Assembly (NCBI GenBank): GCA_016840165.1
Contig: JAEOSU010000087.1
Span: 1 to 31,851, forward strand
Reading direction: 5' to 3'
From: Promethearchaeota archaeon
GTDB lineage: Archaea; Asgardarchaeota; Lokiarchaeia; Sigyniarchaeales; SOKP01
Length of the DNA stretch: 31,851 nucleotides
The notes under the pieces were generated by a model that was not told where the DNA came from, ran no database searches, and worked only from the letters and a program-made list of their open reading frames with translations. Both the position numbers and the translations under genes were made by a program. Shown in pieces: positions 3,001-28,329 of the stretch (the first letter of the stretch is position 1; each line of letters begins with the position of its first letter).

Positions 3001-6000
3001 GTACAAGAGGCTTTAAACTCGTCGTTATTATAGGTATTGAGGGAATGGAGTACTGCAGGGGTTGCAGAAAAAGATGAGCTAAAGGAGACGGTTTCATATT
3101 CGGTACTGGGGTTAGTATACTTGCCGCAACATTTGGAGGTGGAGACCGTACCCGCTTTAACCTTCGTACCGTCTGGAAGCTGCCATTCTCCTGCTTCCAT
3201 AACGATATATGTCAATGATTCGGAAGGATGTCCTGCAGAATAATCATAGGCACCATCGGGAGGCTCTGCCATAAATACATCTGCTCCCGTACTGGAGACA
3301 TTGTCAAATCGTACAGAGACTTCCTCATCATTATTGCGAGTATAGATATAGCCGACAATTACAGAGCTCGTATATGAATACGTAAACGAGATATGGAATG
3401 AATATCCTTGGTCTATGTTATTGGTAAGAGTAACAGAACCGACTTCAAATTGAAAGACATCCCCTTCTCCCCCTCCTCCTCCTTCACCTTCATTTAAGGT
3501 CTTATTCTCTAGTATATCATAATTAGGATGCAAAGGTATTGAAGTAACAAATTCATTCTCATCATCATAGAGTTTTAACAGCGGAGGAGCATTATTCACA
3601 ATATACGGAATGGAATGCAAGTTGGAATAGGTATCGGTATCATTCACAAAACTCATAAAAATATTATCTTGAGTTAAGGTTAAATTGTAGGTTACATCCG
3701 AAATTTCAACCGTATCATTAAATACTTGGGAGGTTACAGTAATGATTACCTCTTTTTCCGTTACATATTCATCTCCCAGTGAACCTTGAAACAAGACTAT
3801 TCGGAGTTCAATAAAGGTCAACTTACTGCCAAAAATCGGATAAAAGGTGGAATTAAGCTTAATATCATCATCAATTATCCCATCATCTTCAAAATAAATA
3901 TGATCTTCTTCAGAGACCACATTAGTAAGGCTAAAGGTTTCATAGCCTGTGGTAAGTAACACTTTCGTAATATCATTATCGACAGGTAGGATTTTTACTG
4001 ATAGGTCAACCATATCCTCAGAATCTAACCCAAATAAAGATCCGCTCTCCAGACCTTCAATAGTGAACAATTGATGATTATTCAATTCTTTGATAAACCA
4101 GTAACTTCCTTCATATAAGATCTCACTATTGTCTAAAGCATCATACCCAATAAAGCGTAACGCAATATTATCATCACGGAAGGTGAGGATATCCATGGCA
4201 ATCTCCGCAAGACTATCCTCTGCTTCAAATTGTCCGTAGCTGATCCAGTCTGCTGTTGTTGGGGTAATATATTTGTATTGCAGTTCTACTTTAGCAAAGT
4301 CGTTACTTGTCGAGCTAATTCCCATCGTAATAACATTATCTTCGATAGTATCATAGGTTGCACCTAAGGATAGAGTATATCCATTGGTCAGCAAGGTAAG
4401 CTCCGGACCTTCCAAATCGAGGGTGATGGAATCCAAAGTATAATTATAGAGGTAATAATTTGCACCATAAATGTAACTCAAGTTGGCTTCCACAACAAAC
4501 CGAATCGAAGTCTCAGCATCCATTAATCCTTTAGATTGCGCCCAACTTTCTACTTCTTCAAGTGTTAGCAACCAATAATTGCTATAAAGATCATTATAAG
4601 TAACATTTTTGAGATAATCAATTTGATTCGAATAATTCACATATAAATTTAGTGAGGATAAATGCGACTCATATCCCTCTAGTATATCAACTCCAATCGA
4701 GGAGTGATGATTGATCTTTCCTGATACGTCAAGATAAGTATAATTGATCAAGTCCTTAAAATGATCAATGCCAAAATAGGTATCCCATACCTCATAGATT
4801 GTATTATTATCAATATCTGTGCCTTTAACAATATAATACCAAGACTCATTATCAGGAAGCTCCCAGGTATCCAATAAAAAGGAATAAGAATAAGCATCAT
4901 ACTCATAACTGGTAATCAAATCCCAGTCATCTTCCGTTTGCGTTTGCAGATCGGGATAGGTTTCAGAGAGATACATTTCCAGCTCAACGACTTCATTACC
5001 TGCAGCAGTGCAAACTAAATTAATATAGCCATTTTGAAGTTCTCCAGAAGTCGTAATCAAACTCCAGCCACCTTGCCCATCATCCTTATAGATACCGGGC
5101 GATAGAGAGACGATAGGCGCACCCATATGGTTGACAATTTGCATATCGGTGATCGAGCTATTAAAGACCGAAATTTCATCTAACTTTCCTGCAAAACAGG
5201 TATAATTAGTCAGTTCTGCACCAATTGTGAGATTTCCTCCGTTCTGGATGGCACCACCACCATTCCATGGTTCAATACTTCCTCCTAAAGCGTCGCGACA
5301 CCATGTATCCCCAAGAAATACGTCCACATCCGATTCATTATAGCGAACTGCAATATAAGTCCATTGGTTTAATGGGATGACATTGGAGAAACCATAAGTC
5401 GCTGTAGTTTCTACACTAACAGTATTAAGATAGAGCATAAGGAACCCACTTTCATTAATACCTATCTCAATACTTCCTGCTTTGGCAAAAAAGGTATTTT
5501 TGATACCATGTAAGTTGCTCGTGTCATTATAAGCAGTTGGATAGACCCAGCCAGTAATAGCAAACGTATCATCATTAGTTCCCCAACTGTTATCTAAAAT
5601 GTCTCCAAAGAATACATAATCAAAATCTTCATATGAGACCTCACTACTTCCTGACGGTTCACTTGGCCATTGGACTACTTCGTAGGTCACCAGTTTCTCT
5701 TGTCCATTATCGGATTCTGTAAACGTGATCTGAGAAGTAGAAGTCAGGCGATAGTCAATCGAACCACGTGGGAGTGCTGTGCCCGCGCCATCCATACTGG
5801 CTTGTGCGAATATGCTGGTAGCATCTATATTGCTGACTGTAGAGATGTCTTCAGCCCATTGATTTTCCTCGCTTCCGCCCGCTGTCTTATAATACCAATC
5901 ATGCTCGACAGTCATCACATTACCTGTAGATTGGGTGTTTTCGATGATCCAGCAAGTCTTATAGCGAGTACCAGATGTAGCTGAATTGCGAATCCGTAAT

Positions 6001-18700: not shown

Positions 18701-20263
18701 TTATATTCTTCTAGGACCCCTTAATACTAACCCACATTGAGAGCATACTGATTCATATCCTCCTGTGTTTATAGTTAGTATAAAACCGCCACACTCTGGA
18801 CATGTTGGTTCGGTTAATATATCTATTGGATATATGTTTGTAATTCCATTATTTCCCTTTCTCGTTCTAAATACCATATTTGAGGAAAGTATCATCTCTT
18901 CTCGATGACCGACAATTATTACTTGCGATGTACGAGATATTTTTTTCAACAATTTACTAACTATAGCTACATGTAAAGAATCTAAATTCTCATCTATATT
19001 ATCAAAAAGATAAAAAGAAAGAGGAAAACATAATATCGAGGCGAAATATAATAATAGAAAAACATAACTTTTTTCGCTCCCACTTAAATAGTCAAATTCA
19101 ATAAATTCTCCTTCACTCATTTTTACCTTTATAAGTAAATTAGCAATAGAGAGGTTTTCAGGATTTTCTACAGATATATCTATTGAATTTATTGTTTCGT
19201 CTTCATCGCATAATCTTTGTAGCTCTCCGATAAATTTGGGTAACACTATTTTCAAAAAATTGGGATTCCATGTATTTTCTATTTTATTCCAAGATTTTAA
19301 TAGTTGTCCAATAATCTTTAATCTCTCCTGGGGGGAGCGGGATATAAATTCATTTTCATCATTATCCACAAGAATAAATCTTTTAGATGTGTCTTTATTG
19401 ATGGTTGTTAATTCTATTACTTTCTTATAATCAACTAAAGATGTTGGAATTCCATTTACTAATTCCATATTTTCCTGATTATTTTTTATTATTCTATGTA
19501 AATAGAAAAATGGATAATACGGGAATTTTTCTTTGTTATTATCGAACTTTACTATTACTTCTGCTTGCGGGACGACATTAGAATCTGTACTTATGTAAAG
19601 TAGATTTTTATAATTAGTGAAATATTTTTCATTTCTATAATCTAATACCATTAATACCGCTTTAATGATATTGGATTTTCCAGATCCTAATGGGCCAATA
19701 ATTAAGTTAAGATTTGGGGACAGGTTTAAGTTTATTTTATTAGGGCCAAATGAGGCAAATCCTGAAAATATAATTTCTTTTATGTAATAATCATATTCTT
19801 GTTTAATGTTTGGCTTAAGTGATCTTAGGTCACCAATTTTCTGGACATTGTCTAGTTCTGTGTCTACGGACTTATATTTCCTCATTATTAGTTGAAATAA
19901 ATCATAGCTAAACTGTTTAATATCATTCTCTTTAAATTTTATCCCAAGTTTAGTAGTTAATAAAGTAGGAATAGAGTTCTCATTAATAAAAACAGGAATT
20001 ATTTTCTTTTGCAGTTTTAAAGCAGCCATCCATTCCATCCTAACCGGTCTTGATTCATCTGCATTTTCAGAACAAAATAGAATTAAAATATCGCATTTCC
20101 TTAAATTTTCATTCATATATTCATAGATATCATCATACATATCACGTTCCCAATATAATACATCTCCAATCTGCGAGAAATCACCCAATAAGCCGCAGAT
20201 CATTGGAATTTGAAATAATTGAGAATCTTTTGTAGAATAGCTTATATATACTACTATACTCAA
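18701..20263 (-). CDS. TIR domain - SMC-head-like ABC ATPase (no long coiled coil) - TFIIB-type Zn ribbon fusion
   Basis: TIR: VYISYSTKD, CDILILFCS, VRMEWMAAL, IIPVF. ABC: GFASF, GPLGSGKSN, LSGSEKS, FYLFDNIDENLD, IIVGHREEM. Zn ribbon: CPECGG...ESVCSQCGLVL. Confidence 0.9.
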   Translation of the reverse strand: MSIVVYISYSTKDSQLFQIPMICGLLGDFSQIGDVLYWERDMYDDIYEYMNENLRKCDILILFCSENADESRPVRMEWMAALKLQKKIIPVFINENSIPTLLTTKLGIKFKENDIKQFSYDLFQLIMRKYKSVDTELDNVQKIGDLRSLKPNIKQEYDYYIKEIIFSGFASFGPNKINLNLSPNLNLIIGPLGSGKSNIIKAVLMVLDYRNEKYFTNYKNLLYISTDSNVVPQAEVIVKFDNNKEKFPYYPFFYLHRIIKNNQENMELVNGIPTSLVDYKKVIELTTINKDTSKRFILVDNDENEFISRSPQERLKIIGQLLKSWNKIENTWNPNFLKIVLPKFIGELQRLCDEDETINSIDISVENPENLSIANLLIKVKMSEGEFIEFDYLSGSEKSYVFLLLYFASILCFPLSFYLFDNIDENLDSLHVAIVSKLLKKISRTSQVIIVGHREEMILSSNMVFRTRKGNNGITNIYPIDILTEPTCPECGGFILTINTGGYESVCSQCGLVLRGPRRI

Positions 20264-22435: not shown

Positions 22436-24244
22436 GTGATTTCCATAATAAGGACAAGAGCACATGAGCTTGAAACTCTATCTAAAGCTTTTTTATTACG
22501 TTTCTTTTTTAAATGGATTTGTAATGAATATAATCCTGATTATGGACTTGATTATAAGATAACAATTGTAAGGAATGGAGAAGAAACTAAGGATTTCTTT
22601 TTTGTACAGCTTAAAGCAACGGATCATATTGATATTAAGGAAGAGGAAATTAACTTTGTATTAGATGTGAAACATATACTTTTTTTTAAAGAAATGCCAA
22701 TTCCTATTTTGCTAATTTTATATGATGTACAAAATGATTGTGGTTATTGGTTAAATATTCAGAGATATTACAAAGATGTATTAATCCATGAGGAAGAGGA
22801 TTGGAGTAAGCAAAAGACAAAAACACTAAAAATTCCATTAGATAATAAGTTAGTAGACCTAAAAGATATTGAAGAAATGATAATAATCTCATCTAAAGAA
22901 TTGTATCGAAGTATAACGTTTGGATATGAATGGTTTGAAGGTTATGAGAAATTAATTGAGAGTCCTGAAGAGTTAGATAAAATTATAGCAAAGTACGAGT
23001 CAGATTTTATCGAATCAAATGTCTATGCTTCTTTAGTGAATTTTAGAGCAGGAAATATGGAAAAAACTCGGGAGAATTTACTGAGTGTATACAATCAAAA
23101 AAAAGAAGATATAAGGCATCTACAAATTATCCTATCAATAACTTTATTTGATCTACCAATAATAGCAATTAATCCCTCTGAATTTACGAGACTTCTCCGT
23201 GAGGGTCTTGGACTAGCAATTAGATTAGAAGAAAAATTATTTGAAACCATGTTTAGATTTTATATTATTTATTCGAAACTTTTCGAATTATTATTAGCAA
23301 AAATGCCATTAACCCTGCAAAAAATATATATTGCCGAAGGAAAGAGTGTTGTTGATCCTTTTGTTCAACTTATCTGGGATAGTGAAGACTTATACTTAAC
23401 GGGGTTACTAAAGAATATATATGATACAATCTCTCAAATATTAAAAGAGACCATTGAAAATGGGAATATAATAGAATATATTGAGATGCAATTATGTGTA
23501 ATTTTCTTAGATAACTTTGTATCCAATCTAATTAGAAGTAGTACTAAAAAAGTAATAGAAAAAGATCAAAAGCAAGTAGATTTTATAAATCAACTTTTAG
23601 AATTAATTGAAAAAATTAATAACATTGATCTTTCACTTCAAGCATATCTAATAATTGGAAATTTTTTCGAACAAATCGATTTAGAAAATTGTTTATCCTT
23701 ATATAATAGAGGATTAGAGCTAGCTAAACAACAGGAGCATAGATATTATTTAGATAAATTTAATGAAAATATTAGAGAAGCAGGTAGAGCTATAGAAATT
23801 CCTACTCTAGAAGAACAGAGAGAAGAAATACGAAATTTACCATTGAAGTCATTTATTGAACTTCAAGAAATGAAATATAAGGGATTAGATTCATTAGAAG
23901 ATGAAAAGTTGAAGAAACTCTTGAAATTTGCTCAAAAACAAATGTATGTGTTAGATATTTTAAAATATTGCGAATATTTGAACATTTGTTATTTTCCATC
24001 TGTCTATGGACAAACTTATGGCATTTTCTCATTAGGAGTTAAAGAGATCGCATGTTTGGCTAAGGAGAAAATCTATAGCTCTGCAGATCTTATGAGTACA
24101 ATAGAACAATTTAAAAATAATTTTTGTGAAAAATGTGATTTACGAAAAGCTCGGGAAGAAAATTTTGATCCTCCAACTAAAATTTTAGATGAAATGTGCG
24201 AAAATATAGCTAAAATGAAAAGGAAAAATTCACCTAAAGTATAA
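22436..24244 (+). CDS. DUF4365 (PD-(D/E)XK) nuclease domain fused to helical/TPR-like region and Cys-rich C-terminus
   Basis: PDYGLDYKI, FFVQLKAT, PILLILYD...YWLNIQ DUF4365 signature; QAYLIIGNFFE...YNRGLELA TPR-like segment; C-terminal C..C..C..CEKC. Confidence 0.85.
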   Translation: MISIIRTRAHELETLSKAFLLRFFFKWICNEYNPDYGLDYKITIVRNGEETKDFFFVQLKATDHIDIKEEEINFVLDVKHILFFKEMPIPILLILYDVQNDCGYWLNIQRYYKDVLIHEEEDWSKQKTKTLKIPLDNKLVDLKDIEEMIIISSKELYRSITFGYEWFEGYEKLIESPEELDKIIAKYESDFIESNVYASLVNFRAGNMEKTRENLLSVYNQKKEDIRHLQIILSITLFDLPIIAINPSEFTRLLREGLGLAIRLEEKLFETMFRFYIIYSKLFELLLAKMPLTLQKIYIAEGKSVVDPFVQLIWDSEDLYLTGLLKNIYDTISQILKETIENGNIIEYIEMQLCVIFLDNFVSNLIRSSTKKVIEKDQKQVDFINQLLELIEKINNIDLSLQAYLIIGNFFEQIDLENCLSLYNRGLELAKQQEHRYYLDKFNENIREAGRAIEIPTLEEQREEIRNLPLKSFIELQEMKYKGLDSLEDEKLKKLLKFAQKQMYVLDILKYCEYLNICYFPSVYGQTYGIFSLGVKEIACLAKEKIYSSADLMSTIEQFKNNFCEKCDLRKAREENFDPPTKILDEMCENIAKMKRKNSPKV

Positions 24245-24829
24245 TGTTTCTTTTAATTTTAAAGAAAAAGTATGGAAACAAGTATAAATCGCTATTTGAG
24301 ATTCATGAACTTAGTCGGCCTATTTTGGGCTTCTCTTGGTAGTATTTAAGATCAAACCAAACGCTGGTATTATGGGTAAGAGTTATGAAACCTTGTTTTA
24401 AAGGAGAAATTTTTCCCCTTACCAAAAATTACTTAGATATCGAACCGCAGAGATTTATAAACTCATAGGTGAATTCATATTCTATCCCAATTAGACAAAA
24501 TGCGTGATGACCCATCTATTTTACTCCTAACTCTATTGCTTATACCATAGTTCACGCCGATTGTCGGGAGCCCATCTCTTTCTCGAACCTCTTCTTAATA
24601 GCATTTGTGCCATCTCCTTCTTGGAAGTAAGCTCCGTTCTTACTTCCTACTTCTAATCTCTTTATTAGAGATAAAGCCATACTAGAATAAAAGCGTGAAG
24701 CATGAATCCGATATAGTTCAGGAGGTTCGCAAGGCACATCCCTAAAAAGACCCATAGACCAATCCCAGCTAAATCTAACTTATCCATAGTTGTAAATTAC
24801 TACTTATTGTTTAAAAAGAAAAAAAAAAC

Positions 24830-24974
24830 TGATTCCTGTCAAGGCGACCTATCGGGGTGGAGGTCATAAAAAATGGTTAAAAAAAGGGGCGTAGATTGGT
24901 AGAGGAGGACCAATCACTTATACAAAACAAGCCAAATATGGAAAGGATTTCAATTATGAAGATGACAGGAATCA
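24830..24974 (-). ncRNA. Structured fold-back element A (candidate ncRNA or ssDNA recombination site)
   Basis: 12-bp perfect terminal inverted repeat TGATTCCTGTCA/TGACAGGAATCA; internal hairpins GACCT/AGGTC (24846-24865) and GATTGGT/ACCAATC (24894-24915); followed on the minus strand by a long T tract (24813-24828). Confidence 0.55.
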
Positions 24975-25114
24975 TTACTCTTATAATATTGTGGATCTAT
25001 TTAGACAAAAAACAAAAGACAAAAAAAATATTAATTAAATTATGTTATTCTTTATTAAGGGCTTACGCTACTACTTTTTTAAGAGATCAATTATCTGGTA
25101 AAATGGTGTTTATT

Positions 25115-26095
25115 ATGGAAGAGAAGCATATGAAAGAGAAGCACATATGCATTTACACTTATCAATTTTTATTAAATGTTCAAAGTATTTTGAAGAATAT
25201 CGAGATTGTATTGGTTTATTCCAGAAAAGGATTCGAAAAATATGAAGATACATTTAATTCGTTTGTAAAATGTATTGAAGAAGGAAATTTGGATTCTTAT
25301 ATGAAGAATATAAAAGCGCGTAAAGAAGGTATAAAAGCTAGTGATTTGGAATTAAGTGAGATCGAACGATTGATCGCAGATCCTGATAAGGGTTTTCATG
25401 CAAAAGAAATGTTAAGAGATATGGAAAATTTAATTGAGATTTTTAAAGATATCAACTATGCAAAATTAAAAGAGTTCTTGTTTAGGAGTAATATAATTTA
25501 TCTTTTCACAGAATTCGAAAATTTTCTATTTAAATGTATGAAATTTATTTTGTTGAAGTATTCTGAGATAATGGATCAGAAGTCAATACGATTAAAAGAA
25601 ATTAGGTTAATGCACGATAGTAGAAATCTTAAATTAATAGAGGAAATAATTGCAGAAAATACTATTCAAGATTTACTTTACAAAAATTATATCGACATCT
25701 TTAATTATTTTAAAGACCCGCTTGGAATAGAATTACAATTTAGCCAAGAGTCTATAGACAAGCTGAATATCTTTAAAGAAATTCGAAACTTTCTTACTCA
25801 TGGAGATGGAATTATAAATTTATTATTCCTAAAGAGAATTTCAAATTGGAATTTTGATAAATATGATTTAAAGCTTACCAATTTAAAAATTGGTGAAAAA
25901 CTAATTGTAGGCCAGCAAACAATATTTAATCTATTTAGGTTATTAAATAGTTTTATTATTGAAATAGATAGAGTGATGGATAAAAAGTTTCCTGAATTAA
26001 GATTTGAAATCGAAAGTGCAGCCCATTTATTCCATCAGGCATATTTAGACCTTATAATTAGTAAATGGAAAAATGTTCTTGAAAAATTAGAATAA
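25115..26095 (+). CDS. HEPN-domain putative RNase
   Basis: IIYLFTEFENFL and IRNFLTHGDG (RxxxxH). The likely start is ATG 25115 behind a GGTG SD rather than the track's TTG 24896, which lies inside element A. Confidence 0.8.
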   Translation: MEEKHMKEKHICIYTYQFLLNVQSILKNIEIVLVYSRKGFEKYEDTFNSFVKCIEEGNLDSYMKNIKARKEGIKASDLELSEIERLIADPDKGFHAKEMLRDMENLIEIFKDINYAKLKEFLFRSNIIYLFTEFENFLFKCMKFILLKYSEIMDQKSIRLKEIRLMHDSRNLKLIEEIIAENTIQDLLYKNYIDIFNYFKDPLGIELQFSQESIDKLNIFKEIRNFLTHGDGIINLLFLKRISNWNFDKYDLKLTNLKIGEKLIVGQQTIFNLFRLLNSFIIEIDRVMDKKFPELRFEIESAAHLFHQAYLDLIISKWKNVLEKLE

Positions 26096-26209
26096 AGTTA
26101 TTGAACATAAATTAGACTCTTTTTCTTCCTTAATTTCTAGATTGGATGAATTATTTCGTAGTAATATGTAATAATCCATAAATTAAATAGAAAGACTTAT
26201 AGTATAGGA

Positions 26210-26332
26210 GATTCCTGCCACCAAGACCTCAATACAAGGTCCGCAATAAAATAGGGGGAGTAGGGCGAAATCAGGACTCTGAGCCGATCAGAGCCACCAA
26301 AAGACAAAAATCCAGGGCGGCAGCAGGAATCA
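26210..26332 (-). ncRNA. Structured fold-back element B, same architecture as element A
   Basis: GATTCCTGC/GCAGGAATC terminal stem (13 bp with two G-U pairs on the minus strand); hairpins GACCT/AGGTC (26225-26241) and CTCTGA/TCAGAG (26277-26293). Confidence 0.55.
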
Positions 26333-26575
26333 TGGTTGATGGTATCCCTATTTTATTTTGAATTATGGGGTTAAGAAGTACAATTTTTTTGTCTTAGGTA
26401 GTCTAATAGCCACTTACCCTAATAAATCTTTTGGCGATACAAGTTCATCAGTAGGAATGTAGAAATTGAAAAACTTAAAAAGAGTATATTAATATTATCA
26501 ACGTAAAAATCCTTTAATTTAAGATTTAAAAGTCTCAATCATATTAAATCAATTTATAAGAGTGAGGCGAGAAGA

Positions 26576-26866: not shown

Positions 26867-27111
26867 CTATATGAACACATTTTTTTATTTTTTGTTTAAT
26901 CAATATTAAAAAAAGTACTCAACGTGGATCATAGAATTTGTAAAAAAAATTTATTAATATGTATTTCTGTATCTAGCAAAAGTAAAAATCCGATAACCAT
27001 GCAAGAAAAATTAAAATGGAACGCAATTGGCTTAGCCAGAAGAACACGATTACTTAGTAGTTCTTACATTAATTTAAGGAATATTTATTTTTAAGAAGGT
27101 TGAGAATTAGA

Positions 27112-28329
27112 ATGTCATTAAACCAAGATGAGAAGGATTATATTTCAAAGATATTCAATCATGGAGTAGCACATCTTTCTGATGATGCTATCCCTAATCG
27201 CATAATCTGTGTCCATAATATCCATTGGTGTATAGAAAATTTACTTCGTAAGGCGTCTCAAGAATGGACAAATATTGATTATAGGGCAGGATTTGAAGAT
27301 ATATTAAATATTTTTGACAGTAGGCATAACATTCCTATAGACTTAAAAAATGAAATGCGAAGGTTAAATACAATTAGAAATGATATGGAGCATAGATCTT
27401 TATTCCATGATATTAGAGACATCTTAAATTTAATACCTAAGGCAAGAGAGTTTATTTCTTGGATAGCTAAAATAAAATTTAATACCATCATTGATTTGTA
27501 TTCAGTTTCAGCAGCGGACGAATCAAATATTATAACCGATTTTAATAATTGGAAAAGAATGAAGATAGAACAATTCGATATCAATAATTTTGAGAATTTG
27601 ATTTTTATTCTTATAATCCCAACTACTTATTCTCCCAATATCATCGAAATGCATATTGATGGAATTAATGAAATGGTAGGATCAACCCTTGAATCAGGTG
27701 TTAGGATTTCTGGCAGAAATCCTGAGCATGAATCCGCAATTGAAAAATATTTTCGAAGTTTTAGACATATATTTAGCCATCCTTCTCAAGTTTTTTCAAT
27801 CCCTACATATATGCGTTATTATAATGAAATTGGAGATGAATTACGAGTATTTCCCGATGGTAGGATTTATATAGCGTTTAAATTTGGAATGACAGTTAGG
27901 GATGAGTTGGGATTTAATATAGAGAATTTATATTCTGGTAGGGAGGTATTTAATATTAATTCACAGTATATAACCTATTATAATCTACCTTTTAATGAAT
28001 ATAGACCAAATATGCTTGAGTATATATTAAAGCTTGTGCTTTACAGTTTTCACCCGGACAATATTCATTCTGGTGTTAAAGCTCTTACAAAATTTCATCG
28101 AATTTTTATTACTTTGCCTTTCATGAGAAGAAATGGAGAGCCATGCAAATTAGATCGCCATTTAGATGATGACCATTGGTTTGAATCTCCACGAATTTAT
28201 TGTGGAGAGGAAGAGGAGTTAACTTTCAAAAGATCAATTAATTTTGATGAGATTCAGGGCGTTTTAGAAGAGTTTAAAAATTGGACATATTCATTTTTCC
28301 GAAATCCTCATGATACTGGATTTATGTGA
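27112..28329 (+). CDS. N-terminal HEPN-like domain fused to the same unnamed C-terminal domain as 13880-15157
   Basis: HWCIENLLRK and LNTIRNDMEH (RxxxxH); C-terminal homology seen by manual alignment. Start is ATG 27112 or TTG 27100. Confidence 0.8.
   Translation: MSLNQDEKDYISKIFNHGVAHLSDDAIPNRIICVHNIHWCIENLLRKASQEWTNIDYRAGFEDILNIFDSRHNIPIDLKNEMRRLNTIRNDMEHRSLFHDIRDILNLIPKAREFISWIAKIKFNTIIDLYSVSAADESNIITDFNNWKRMKIEQFDINNFENLIFILIIPTTYSPNIIEMHIDGINEMVGSTLESGVRISGRNPEHESAIEKYFRSFRHIFSHPSQVFSIPTYMRYYNEIGDELRVFPDGRIYIAFKFGMTVRDELGFNIENLYSGREVFNINSQYITYYNLPFNEYRPNMLEYILKLVLYSFHPDNIHSGVKALTKFHRIFITLPFMRRNGEPCKLDRHLDDDHWFESPRIYCGEEEELTFKRSINFDEIQGVLEEFKNWTYSFFRNPHDTGFM

Follow-up and report, generated by a model that had tools for sequence, protein, structure and literature searches.

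To our knowledge, very few structured non-coding RNAs have been described for Asgard archaea. The systems with which a new one may be compared include the C-rich trans-acting small RNAs (sRNAs) that pair with purine-rich ribosome-binding sites (Methanosarcina sRNA41; RsaE/RoxS in Firmicutes), together with Sm-class small nuclear RNAs (snRNAs), Y RNAs, type III toxin-antitoxin RNAs, integron attC sites and short DNA repeats. Here we analyse two fold-back elements, A and B, on the 31,851-nt contig JAEOSU010000087.1 (contig C72 in our numbering; the whole stretch is called the window) of a Promethearchaeota archaeon genome (3.6 Mb, 31.6% G+C, 99.7% complete, 6.3% contamination), where they lie in the same orientation on either side of a gene for a HEPN-like protein. 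It is likely that A and B are two paralogues, A degenerate and B typical, of an uncatalogued family of structured small-RNA genes that is independent of the HEPN-like gene. The two elements would then be tandem, same-strand small non-coding RNA genes of one family.

Fold, covariation and conserved locus of the RNA family

BLASTN detected three more B copies in the genome, at C5:14791-14924 (95.5% identity) and on contigs C81 (86%) and C48 (75%). Across the four B copies the closing stem reads GAYUCCUG/CAGGARUC, with CUAUCAG/CUGAUAG in the C48 copy, and the second hairpin occurs in three completely different sequences. A covariance model built from these four copies (R1) gave between one and nine matches in each of 35 out of 36 further genomes of the genus; it also matched three of 14 genomes of the second (sister) family of the order, and none of nine genomes sampled from four other families. 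A distant member from the sister family is at G055:C1:3151865-3151999, in a complete 6.04-Mb genome. Element B scored 159 bits with R1 and 128 bits with a broader model (R2). In 48 non-redundant members, 94% of the cells were paired and 18 of the 21 modelled pairs had changed on both sides, values that none of 500 shuffles reached, and slid partners were 15-50% paired. The closing helix P1 covaries across the 48 sequences, and 71 members folded singly share one junction, around which P1 takes 41 different forms, P3 27 and P4 18.

The family RNA has a core of ~130 nt, or ~165 nt with its leader, and is composed of a closing helix P1 of 10-13 bp, a U-rich single strand (GGAUUUUUGUCUUUUGG), hairpin P3, a C-rich strand (CGCCCUCCUCCCCCUAUUUUAUU) and hairpin P4, with a 3' end reading ...CAGGAGUCUCCCUUU(U). 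The single strands between P1 and P3 (CCCUGGAUUUUUGUCUUUUGGU) and between P3 and P4 (AUUUCGCCCUCCUCCCCCUAUUU) are near-invariant or invariant. A sequence-only reading of the window had proposed for A and B a conserved structure with varying sequence, which the covariation of the family bears out. It had not recognised the family, and Rfam 15 gave no match at the gathering threshold in the window, none on the elements at E up to 10 (24700-26500), and none at E up to 1 in five loci with diverse members. No description of this RNA was found in literature searches.

One conserved arrangement surrounds the RNA in 26 of 33 loci, a set made up of 30 best-match loci, the window and two more loci of this genome; the C81 copy of this genome is among the 26. 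The conserved order is a gene for a 158-aa protein, a small Zn-ribbon gene that roughly half of the 26 loci have, a divergent ~130-aa gene for a predicted membrane protein, the RNA, and a radical-SAM gene with an HMPTM zinc ribbon. When the 158-aa protein was used as an anchor, 64 loci were obtained in species-representative genomes, and R2 found the RNA in 56 of them, 0.9-1.5 kb downstream of the 158-aa gene and on the same strand; six of the eight anchor loci without the RNA end at contig ends. Other paralogue groups have conserved neighbours of their own. The 102 proteins beside the remaining copies gave matches to 103 Pfam families, none of them matched by more than two proteins and those listed being ordinary cellular ones, and no HEPN, integrase or transposase family recurs among these neighbours. 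The family is vertically inherited in Loki-type Asgard archaea; its main copy keeps to a single conserved locus, and a small number of additional paralogues accompany it. With strong covariation, a probable pseudoknot, an invariant strand that resembles a protein site and a conserved position across dozens of species, it offers a well-defined target for small-RNA sequencing and pull-downs in Lokiarchaeial enrichment cultures.

Elements A and B and their predicted transcription signals

All the sequence features that the sequence-only reading listed for A and B are present as described. The closing stem GATTCCTG...CAGGAATC is common to both elements, and the compensatory change next to it is present, the adjoining T-A pair of A being C-G in B; a GACCT/AGGTC hairpin with unrelated loops occurs in both, and a second hairpin of unrelated sequence occupies the matching place. 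Element A ends 129 or 141 nt before the open reading frame (ORF) between the elements, depending on the start codon (ATG 25103 or ATG 25115), and B begins 115 nt past the stop of that ORF at 26095. That such fold-back elements exceed chance is supported by shuffles, fold z-scores and compensatory changes in related copies: the stem pattern did not occur in 100 shuffles of the window, and all four single-strand folds were better than 200 shuffles (z -3.0 to -4.9). Element B folds at -45.8 kcal/mol on the minus strand (z -3.9) versus -36.4 on the plus strand, and A folds at -37.2 kcal/mol (z -4.9). A tRNA/tmRNA scan of the window returned no tRNA and nothing on the elements. The features of the two elements are as follows.

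26382-26395, minus strand: predicted promoter of B, TATA-like AAGACAAAAAAAUU, 35 nt before AUAGGG
26345-26359, minus strand: 5' leader strand of B, AAAAUAAAAUAGGGA, probable 5' strand of a pseudoknot; motif kept in most relatives
26210-26331, minus strand: element B, core of a typical member, bounded by the 5' and 3' arms of P1; a four-way junction in the order P1, U-rich strand, P3, C-rich strand, P4
26319-26331, minus strand: P1 5' arm of B (GAUUCCUGCUGCC), pairing with 26210-26222 over 13 bp that include U-G and G-U
26297-26313, minus strand: U-rich motif of B, GGAUUUUUGUCUUUUGG, single-stranded and Sm-site-like, with a core invariant across genus-level copies in the alignments
26275-26295, minus strand: hairpin P3 of B
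26246-26258, minus strand: C-rich internal strand of B (CCCCCUAUUUUAU), probable 3' strand of the pseudoknot, complementary to 26345-26359
26225-26241, minus strand: hairpin P4 of B (GACCU/AGGUC)
24831-24973, minus strand: element A, degenerate family copy; P1 formed by 24831-24841 with 24963-24973
24894-24915, minus strand: P3-like hairpin of A
24846-24865, minus strand: P4-like hairpin of A (GACCT/AGGTC)
24819-24828, minus strand: U10 tract directly after A (ten A's on the plus strand), from its sequence a likely archaeal terminator

Within this genome, the full U-rich 16-mer is confined to the four B-type copies. Element A has one further copy, found by BLASTN at C5:14578-14725 (98% identity), and A together with the following 430 nt is restricted to the two loci of this genome on C72 and C5. 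R1 misses A, and R2 matches it weakly (E 7e-4 in the window, 0.08 genome-wide). By eye, A holds a P3-like hairpin, CGCCCC, the GACCU/AGGUC hairpin and a decayed U-rich site; its interior is decayed, with C-rich motifs kept in the hairpin loops. Because its R2 match is weak, its U-rich site is decayed and its copies are found in this genome only, A is a degenerate, lineage-specific paralogue.

The signals that bear on strand and transcript ends agree across the family. Several positions, among them pairs in P1 of B, are U-G or G-U on the minus strand and would be A-C or C-A mismatches on the plus strand. The helices of the 48 members contain 54 G-U cells versus 8 A-C cells, and a run of at least three T's follows shortly after P1 in 47 of the 48 copies (median offset 4 nt). 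Because of this excess of G-U cells and this T run, the RNA is predicted to be read from the minus strand of the window, opposite to the HEPN-like gene. Element A likewise scores 23.5 bits with R2 on the minus strand versus 12.4 on the plus strand. The earlier suggestion of a single-stranded molecule from the minus strand is therefore supported by G-U pairs, the U tract and covariation alike. A TATA-like motif (AAGAUAAAAAUUUAA) lies 35-39 nt before AUAGGG in syntenic copies, so that the transcript probably starts just before the leader. A and B each appear to have an AT-rich promoter and an oligo-U end of their own.

A pseudoknot between the 5' leader and the 3' part of the C-rich strand is probable. 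In most members a leader motif, AAAUAAAAUAGGGA, lies 2-28 nt upstream of P1 and is the exact complement of the internal CCCCUAUUUUAUUU, and the leader-internal duplex has z < -2 against shuffled partners in 44 of 71 members. Variants of the internal strand come with matching leader changes in L040, L041, L043, L046, L055/59/49 and the L013 clade, and wobble pairs of the pseudoknot are G-U on the minus strand. In 32 aligned members, the pseudoknot helix was 91% paired, a percentage biased by the choice of members that have the motif. Both sides had changed in 4 of its 12 pairs, and these compensations are free of that bias. The same AAAUAAAAUAGGGA was also considered as a TATA box and rejected, its distance to P1 varying from 15 to 27 nt and its sequence covarying with the internal strand.

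Two subgroups depart from the common form. A ~30-nt insertion with an extra hairpin is carried by L066, L068, L069, L070, L071 (RNA at 4001-4167) and L067; in this subgroup the C-run pairs with a local GGGGA, and this local pairing appears to replace the leader pseudoknot. The L073-L076 paralogue group (RNA at ~4001-4130; four genomes) retains the hairpins together with P1 and the U-rich motif, has A/U-rich sequence in place of the C-rich strand, and possesses its own conserved neighbours.

Downstream of A, a hydrophobic ORF of 40 codons (MDKLDLAGIGLWVFLG..., 24787-24665, minus strand) starts ~40 nt after the U10 tract. The C5 copy retains this ORF with four replacements of one hydrophobic residue by another, and the substitutions are mostly non-synonymous. 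Neither strand of the 430-nt region downstream of A (24440-24800) shows significant structure (z -1.3 and -0.8). The elements could be read as cis-acting leaders, riboswitches or attenuators of downstream minus-strand genes, which for A would be this small ORF, given that P1 and the U tract behind it together look like a terminator or attenuator and that the ORF so close to A is retained on C5. However, the genes downstream of family copies vary in both identity and orientation, and the small ORF and the 430-nt region occur only in this genome, with the substitution pattern just given; we regard a leader function as very improbable.

The HEPN-like gene and the indel between the elements

Two further features of the window concern the gene between the elements.

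25103-26095, plus strand: HEPN-like gene (~327-331 aa), on the strand opposite to the elements and outside the RNA system
25013-26202, no strand: indel segment, 1.19 kb here and 26 nt in the paralogous C5 locus

The encoded protein is probably of HEPN type: R224, N225 and H229 are invariant in 16 metagenomic homologues (47-59% identity), RNFLTH is found in all of them, and PADLOC gave a weak match to RTasHEPN (E 0.002). Pfam gave no match to the protein, and its structure model was of low confidence (predicted local distance difference test, pLDDT, 59.8), with no Foldseek match against the PDB at E up to 0.001.

The sequence-only reading had offered A and B as RNA antitoxins or regulators of this RNase, and the distribution of gene and RNA does not sustain that proposal. 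An antitoxin or dedicated regulator acting in the type III toxin-antitoxin or AbiF manner would account for structured RNAs that flank a putative RNase gene, and antisense transcription from B, which here lacks the usual U-run terminator, could enter the gene at its 3' end. However, the RNA is present in 35 of 36 genus genomes, versus a single weak relative of the gene (E 1e-7) in 41 other genomes of the genus; no RNA element was found, with filters off, at seven tested loci that hold a relative of the gene; and on C5 the A-B pair stands 66 nt apart with no gene between. The RNAs are moreover single genes on the opposite strand with no upstream repeat array, and other copies adjoin unrelated housekeeping genes. 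A dedicated pairing of this kind is thus most improbable, and annotation of the HEPN-like gene as a component of a cassette system or of an RNA-protein toxin-antitoxin system is not warranted.

The position of the gene is explained by the history of the locus. In BLASTN comparisons of the flanks, C72 24399-25012 equals C5 14146-14761 at 91% and C72 26203-26490 equals C5 14788-15082 at 90%. Because these flanks match at 90-91%, the segment is an indel inside a duplicated tandem pair, and the HEPN-like gene lies between A and B through this local indel and not as a functional partner. The 1.2-kb segment would have been either inserted into a tandem B-A pair or lost from the duplicate on C5. DNA contigs from one run contain a joint of 24975 to 26206 at 90% likeness, which is most simply the C5 paralogue and not independent evidence of a gene-less allele. 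Exactly at the left edge of the indel, at 25013-25025, stands CAAAAGACAAAAA, the complement of the family core UUUUUGUCUUUUG. This 13-mer has seven occurrences in the genome, four of them inside B-type copies, and may be what is left of a third RNA copy that the insertion of the segment destroyed.

The same indel could speak for mobile or recombining DNA, and the sequence-only reading had raised both single-stranded cassette recombination sites and repeats of the REP (repetitive extragenic palindrome) or MITE (miniature inverted-repeat transposable element) kind. P1 would then represent terminal inverted repeats, the gene flanked by the two copies is an indel when set against the paralogous locus, the left indel edge carries 13 nt of the core motif, and copy number differs from 1 to 9 between genomes. 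Like attC sites beside a cassette gene, the elements are structured and adjoin a gene; unlike them, they have no R''/R' core (RYYYAAC...GTTRRRY), their stem being GAYUCCUG/CAGGARUC, and they are found as single copies at housekeeping loci, with no integrase or transposase domain in the window ORFs of at least 150 aa and none recurring among the 102 neighbours. A MITE or REP origin is opposed by the low copy number (four B-type and two A-type copies, at 75-98% identity), by the 75-95% identity within the genome with helices kept through one-strand compensatory and G-U changes, a pattern typical of selection on an RNA, and by the stable synteny of the main copy, whose neighbours are the same in 26 of 33 loci and across dozens of species. 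We therefore give hardly any credence to mobile or recombination DNA, and neither suggestion is supported.

The surroundings of the elements look like a defence island. The window contains a second Rx4H protein at 27100-28329 on the plus strand (RNDMEH; best Pfam E 0.15, weak PADLOC match to CARF_HEPN at E 0.002), a DUF4365 protein at 22436-24244 on the plus strand with nuclease-type PADLOC matches (best Aga_REase, E 8e-9), and a TIR-SMC-head-Zn-ribbon fusion at 18701-20263 on the minus strand. At several of the seven loci with a relative of the HEPN-like gene, it stands beside other defence-type genes. L149, L150 and L151 share a five-gene block encoding proteins of 276 aa and 188 aa, a 130-aa PF05168 HEPN protein, a 78-aa protein and the HEPN-like protein; this block may be a multi-gene defence cassette, of which the window has the last gene only.

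Some observations weigh against A and B being two expressed genes of one independent family. The R2 alignment of A covers P1 and its flanks only, and the link of A to the family lies mainly there. No RNA run was among the listed sequencing runs that contain the stretch, and transcription, ends and strand are predicted from sequence signals. Some members, such as L010, L032, L033 and the L073-L076 group, have no leader partner for the pseudoknot. B in the window is without the canonical UCCCUUUU end: where the C5 and consensus copies continue beyond P1 with CCCUUU(U), B here has CUCCUAUAC, and only U3 runs occur between B and the stop of the HEPN-like gene 115 nt away. Read-through of B antisense to the gene is thus possible as a local side effect. 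In this incidental scenario, the indel removed the terminator of B, and antisense B transcripts dampen the 3' part of the HEPN-like gene without this being the function of the family. Short U runs and aCPSF1-type termination may nevertheless still stop transcription, and conservation is no guide for an arrangement that is unique; we consider such an effect improbable.

Candidate function and comparison with known systems

For the family of which A and B are likely members, a role in trans as the RNA of a ribonucleoprotein (RNP) can be envisaged. A protein such as an Sm-like (SmAP/LSm) ring would bind the invariant U-rich strand, and the C-rich strand, which is more variable, would be regulated or would pair with targets. 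Our best guess at the function, and a tentative one, is a trans-acting RNP RNA with an Sm-site-like U-rich strand. The U-rich motif GAUUUUUGU, situated between P1 and P3, does not vary among the genus copies, and this genome has three LSM-domain genes (C104:23490-23684, C88:5831-6046 and C4:37805-37993). Against such binding stand two considerations: Sm-like proteins occur in nearly all archaea, so that their presence says little, and GAUUUUUGU departs after its G from the eukaryotic Sm consensus (...GR), having U where RAU(4-6)GR has a purine.

The RNAs may be compared with several known systems. In type III toxin-antitoxin systems (ToxI etc.), as here, structured elements stand beside a putative RNase gene, but their antitoxin consists of short repeats arrayed in tandem directly upstream of the toxin gene and transcribed together with it, whereas A and B, each a single unit of 120-145 nt, flank the gene on its two sides and lie on the other strand. 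Y RNAs, which associate with Ro60, share with the family a long terminal stem made from both ends, pyrimidine-rich internal strands and an oligo-U tail; unlike them, the elements do not match the Y_RNA model. A Y RNA identity was rejected, TROVE/Ro60 (PF05731) not being found in this 99.7%-complete genome while it was detected in control genomes. The C-rich trans-acting sRNAs resemble the family in that it exposes CCUCC/CCCCC in an AT-rich genome, and A keeps such motifs in its loops. Part of the C-run of the family is, however, probably paired in the pseudoknot, and sites complementary to the C-rich strand are mostly glycine codons (GGA/GGG) within genes and show no pattern at start sites.

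With Sm-class snRNAs and SmAP-bound archaeal sRNAs the family has in common a small, stable-looking RNA with its own gene, an invariant single-stranded U-rich site of the AUUUUUG type between helices and a U-rich 3' end. It differs from the Sm-class snRNAs in that its motif is followed by UCUUUUGG and not by a purine, and in its four-way junction closed by P1 and accompanied by a pseudoknot, with no similarity to any Rfam snRNA model. A more specific and doubtful proposal is that these are dedicated small RNAs of Loki-type Asgard archaea, marked by the invariant Sm-site-like strand between helices, that form a stable Sm/LSm-type RNP with a pseudoknot-gated, variable C-rich arm; this would be a prokaryotic analogue of the Sm-class small nuclear RNPs in the archaea most closely related to eukaryotes. 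If the U-rich strand is truly an Sm-like site, the family bears on the origin of Sm-type RNPs before eukaryotes.

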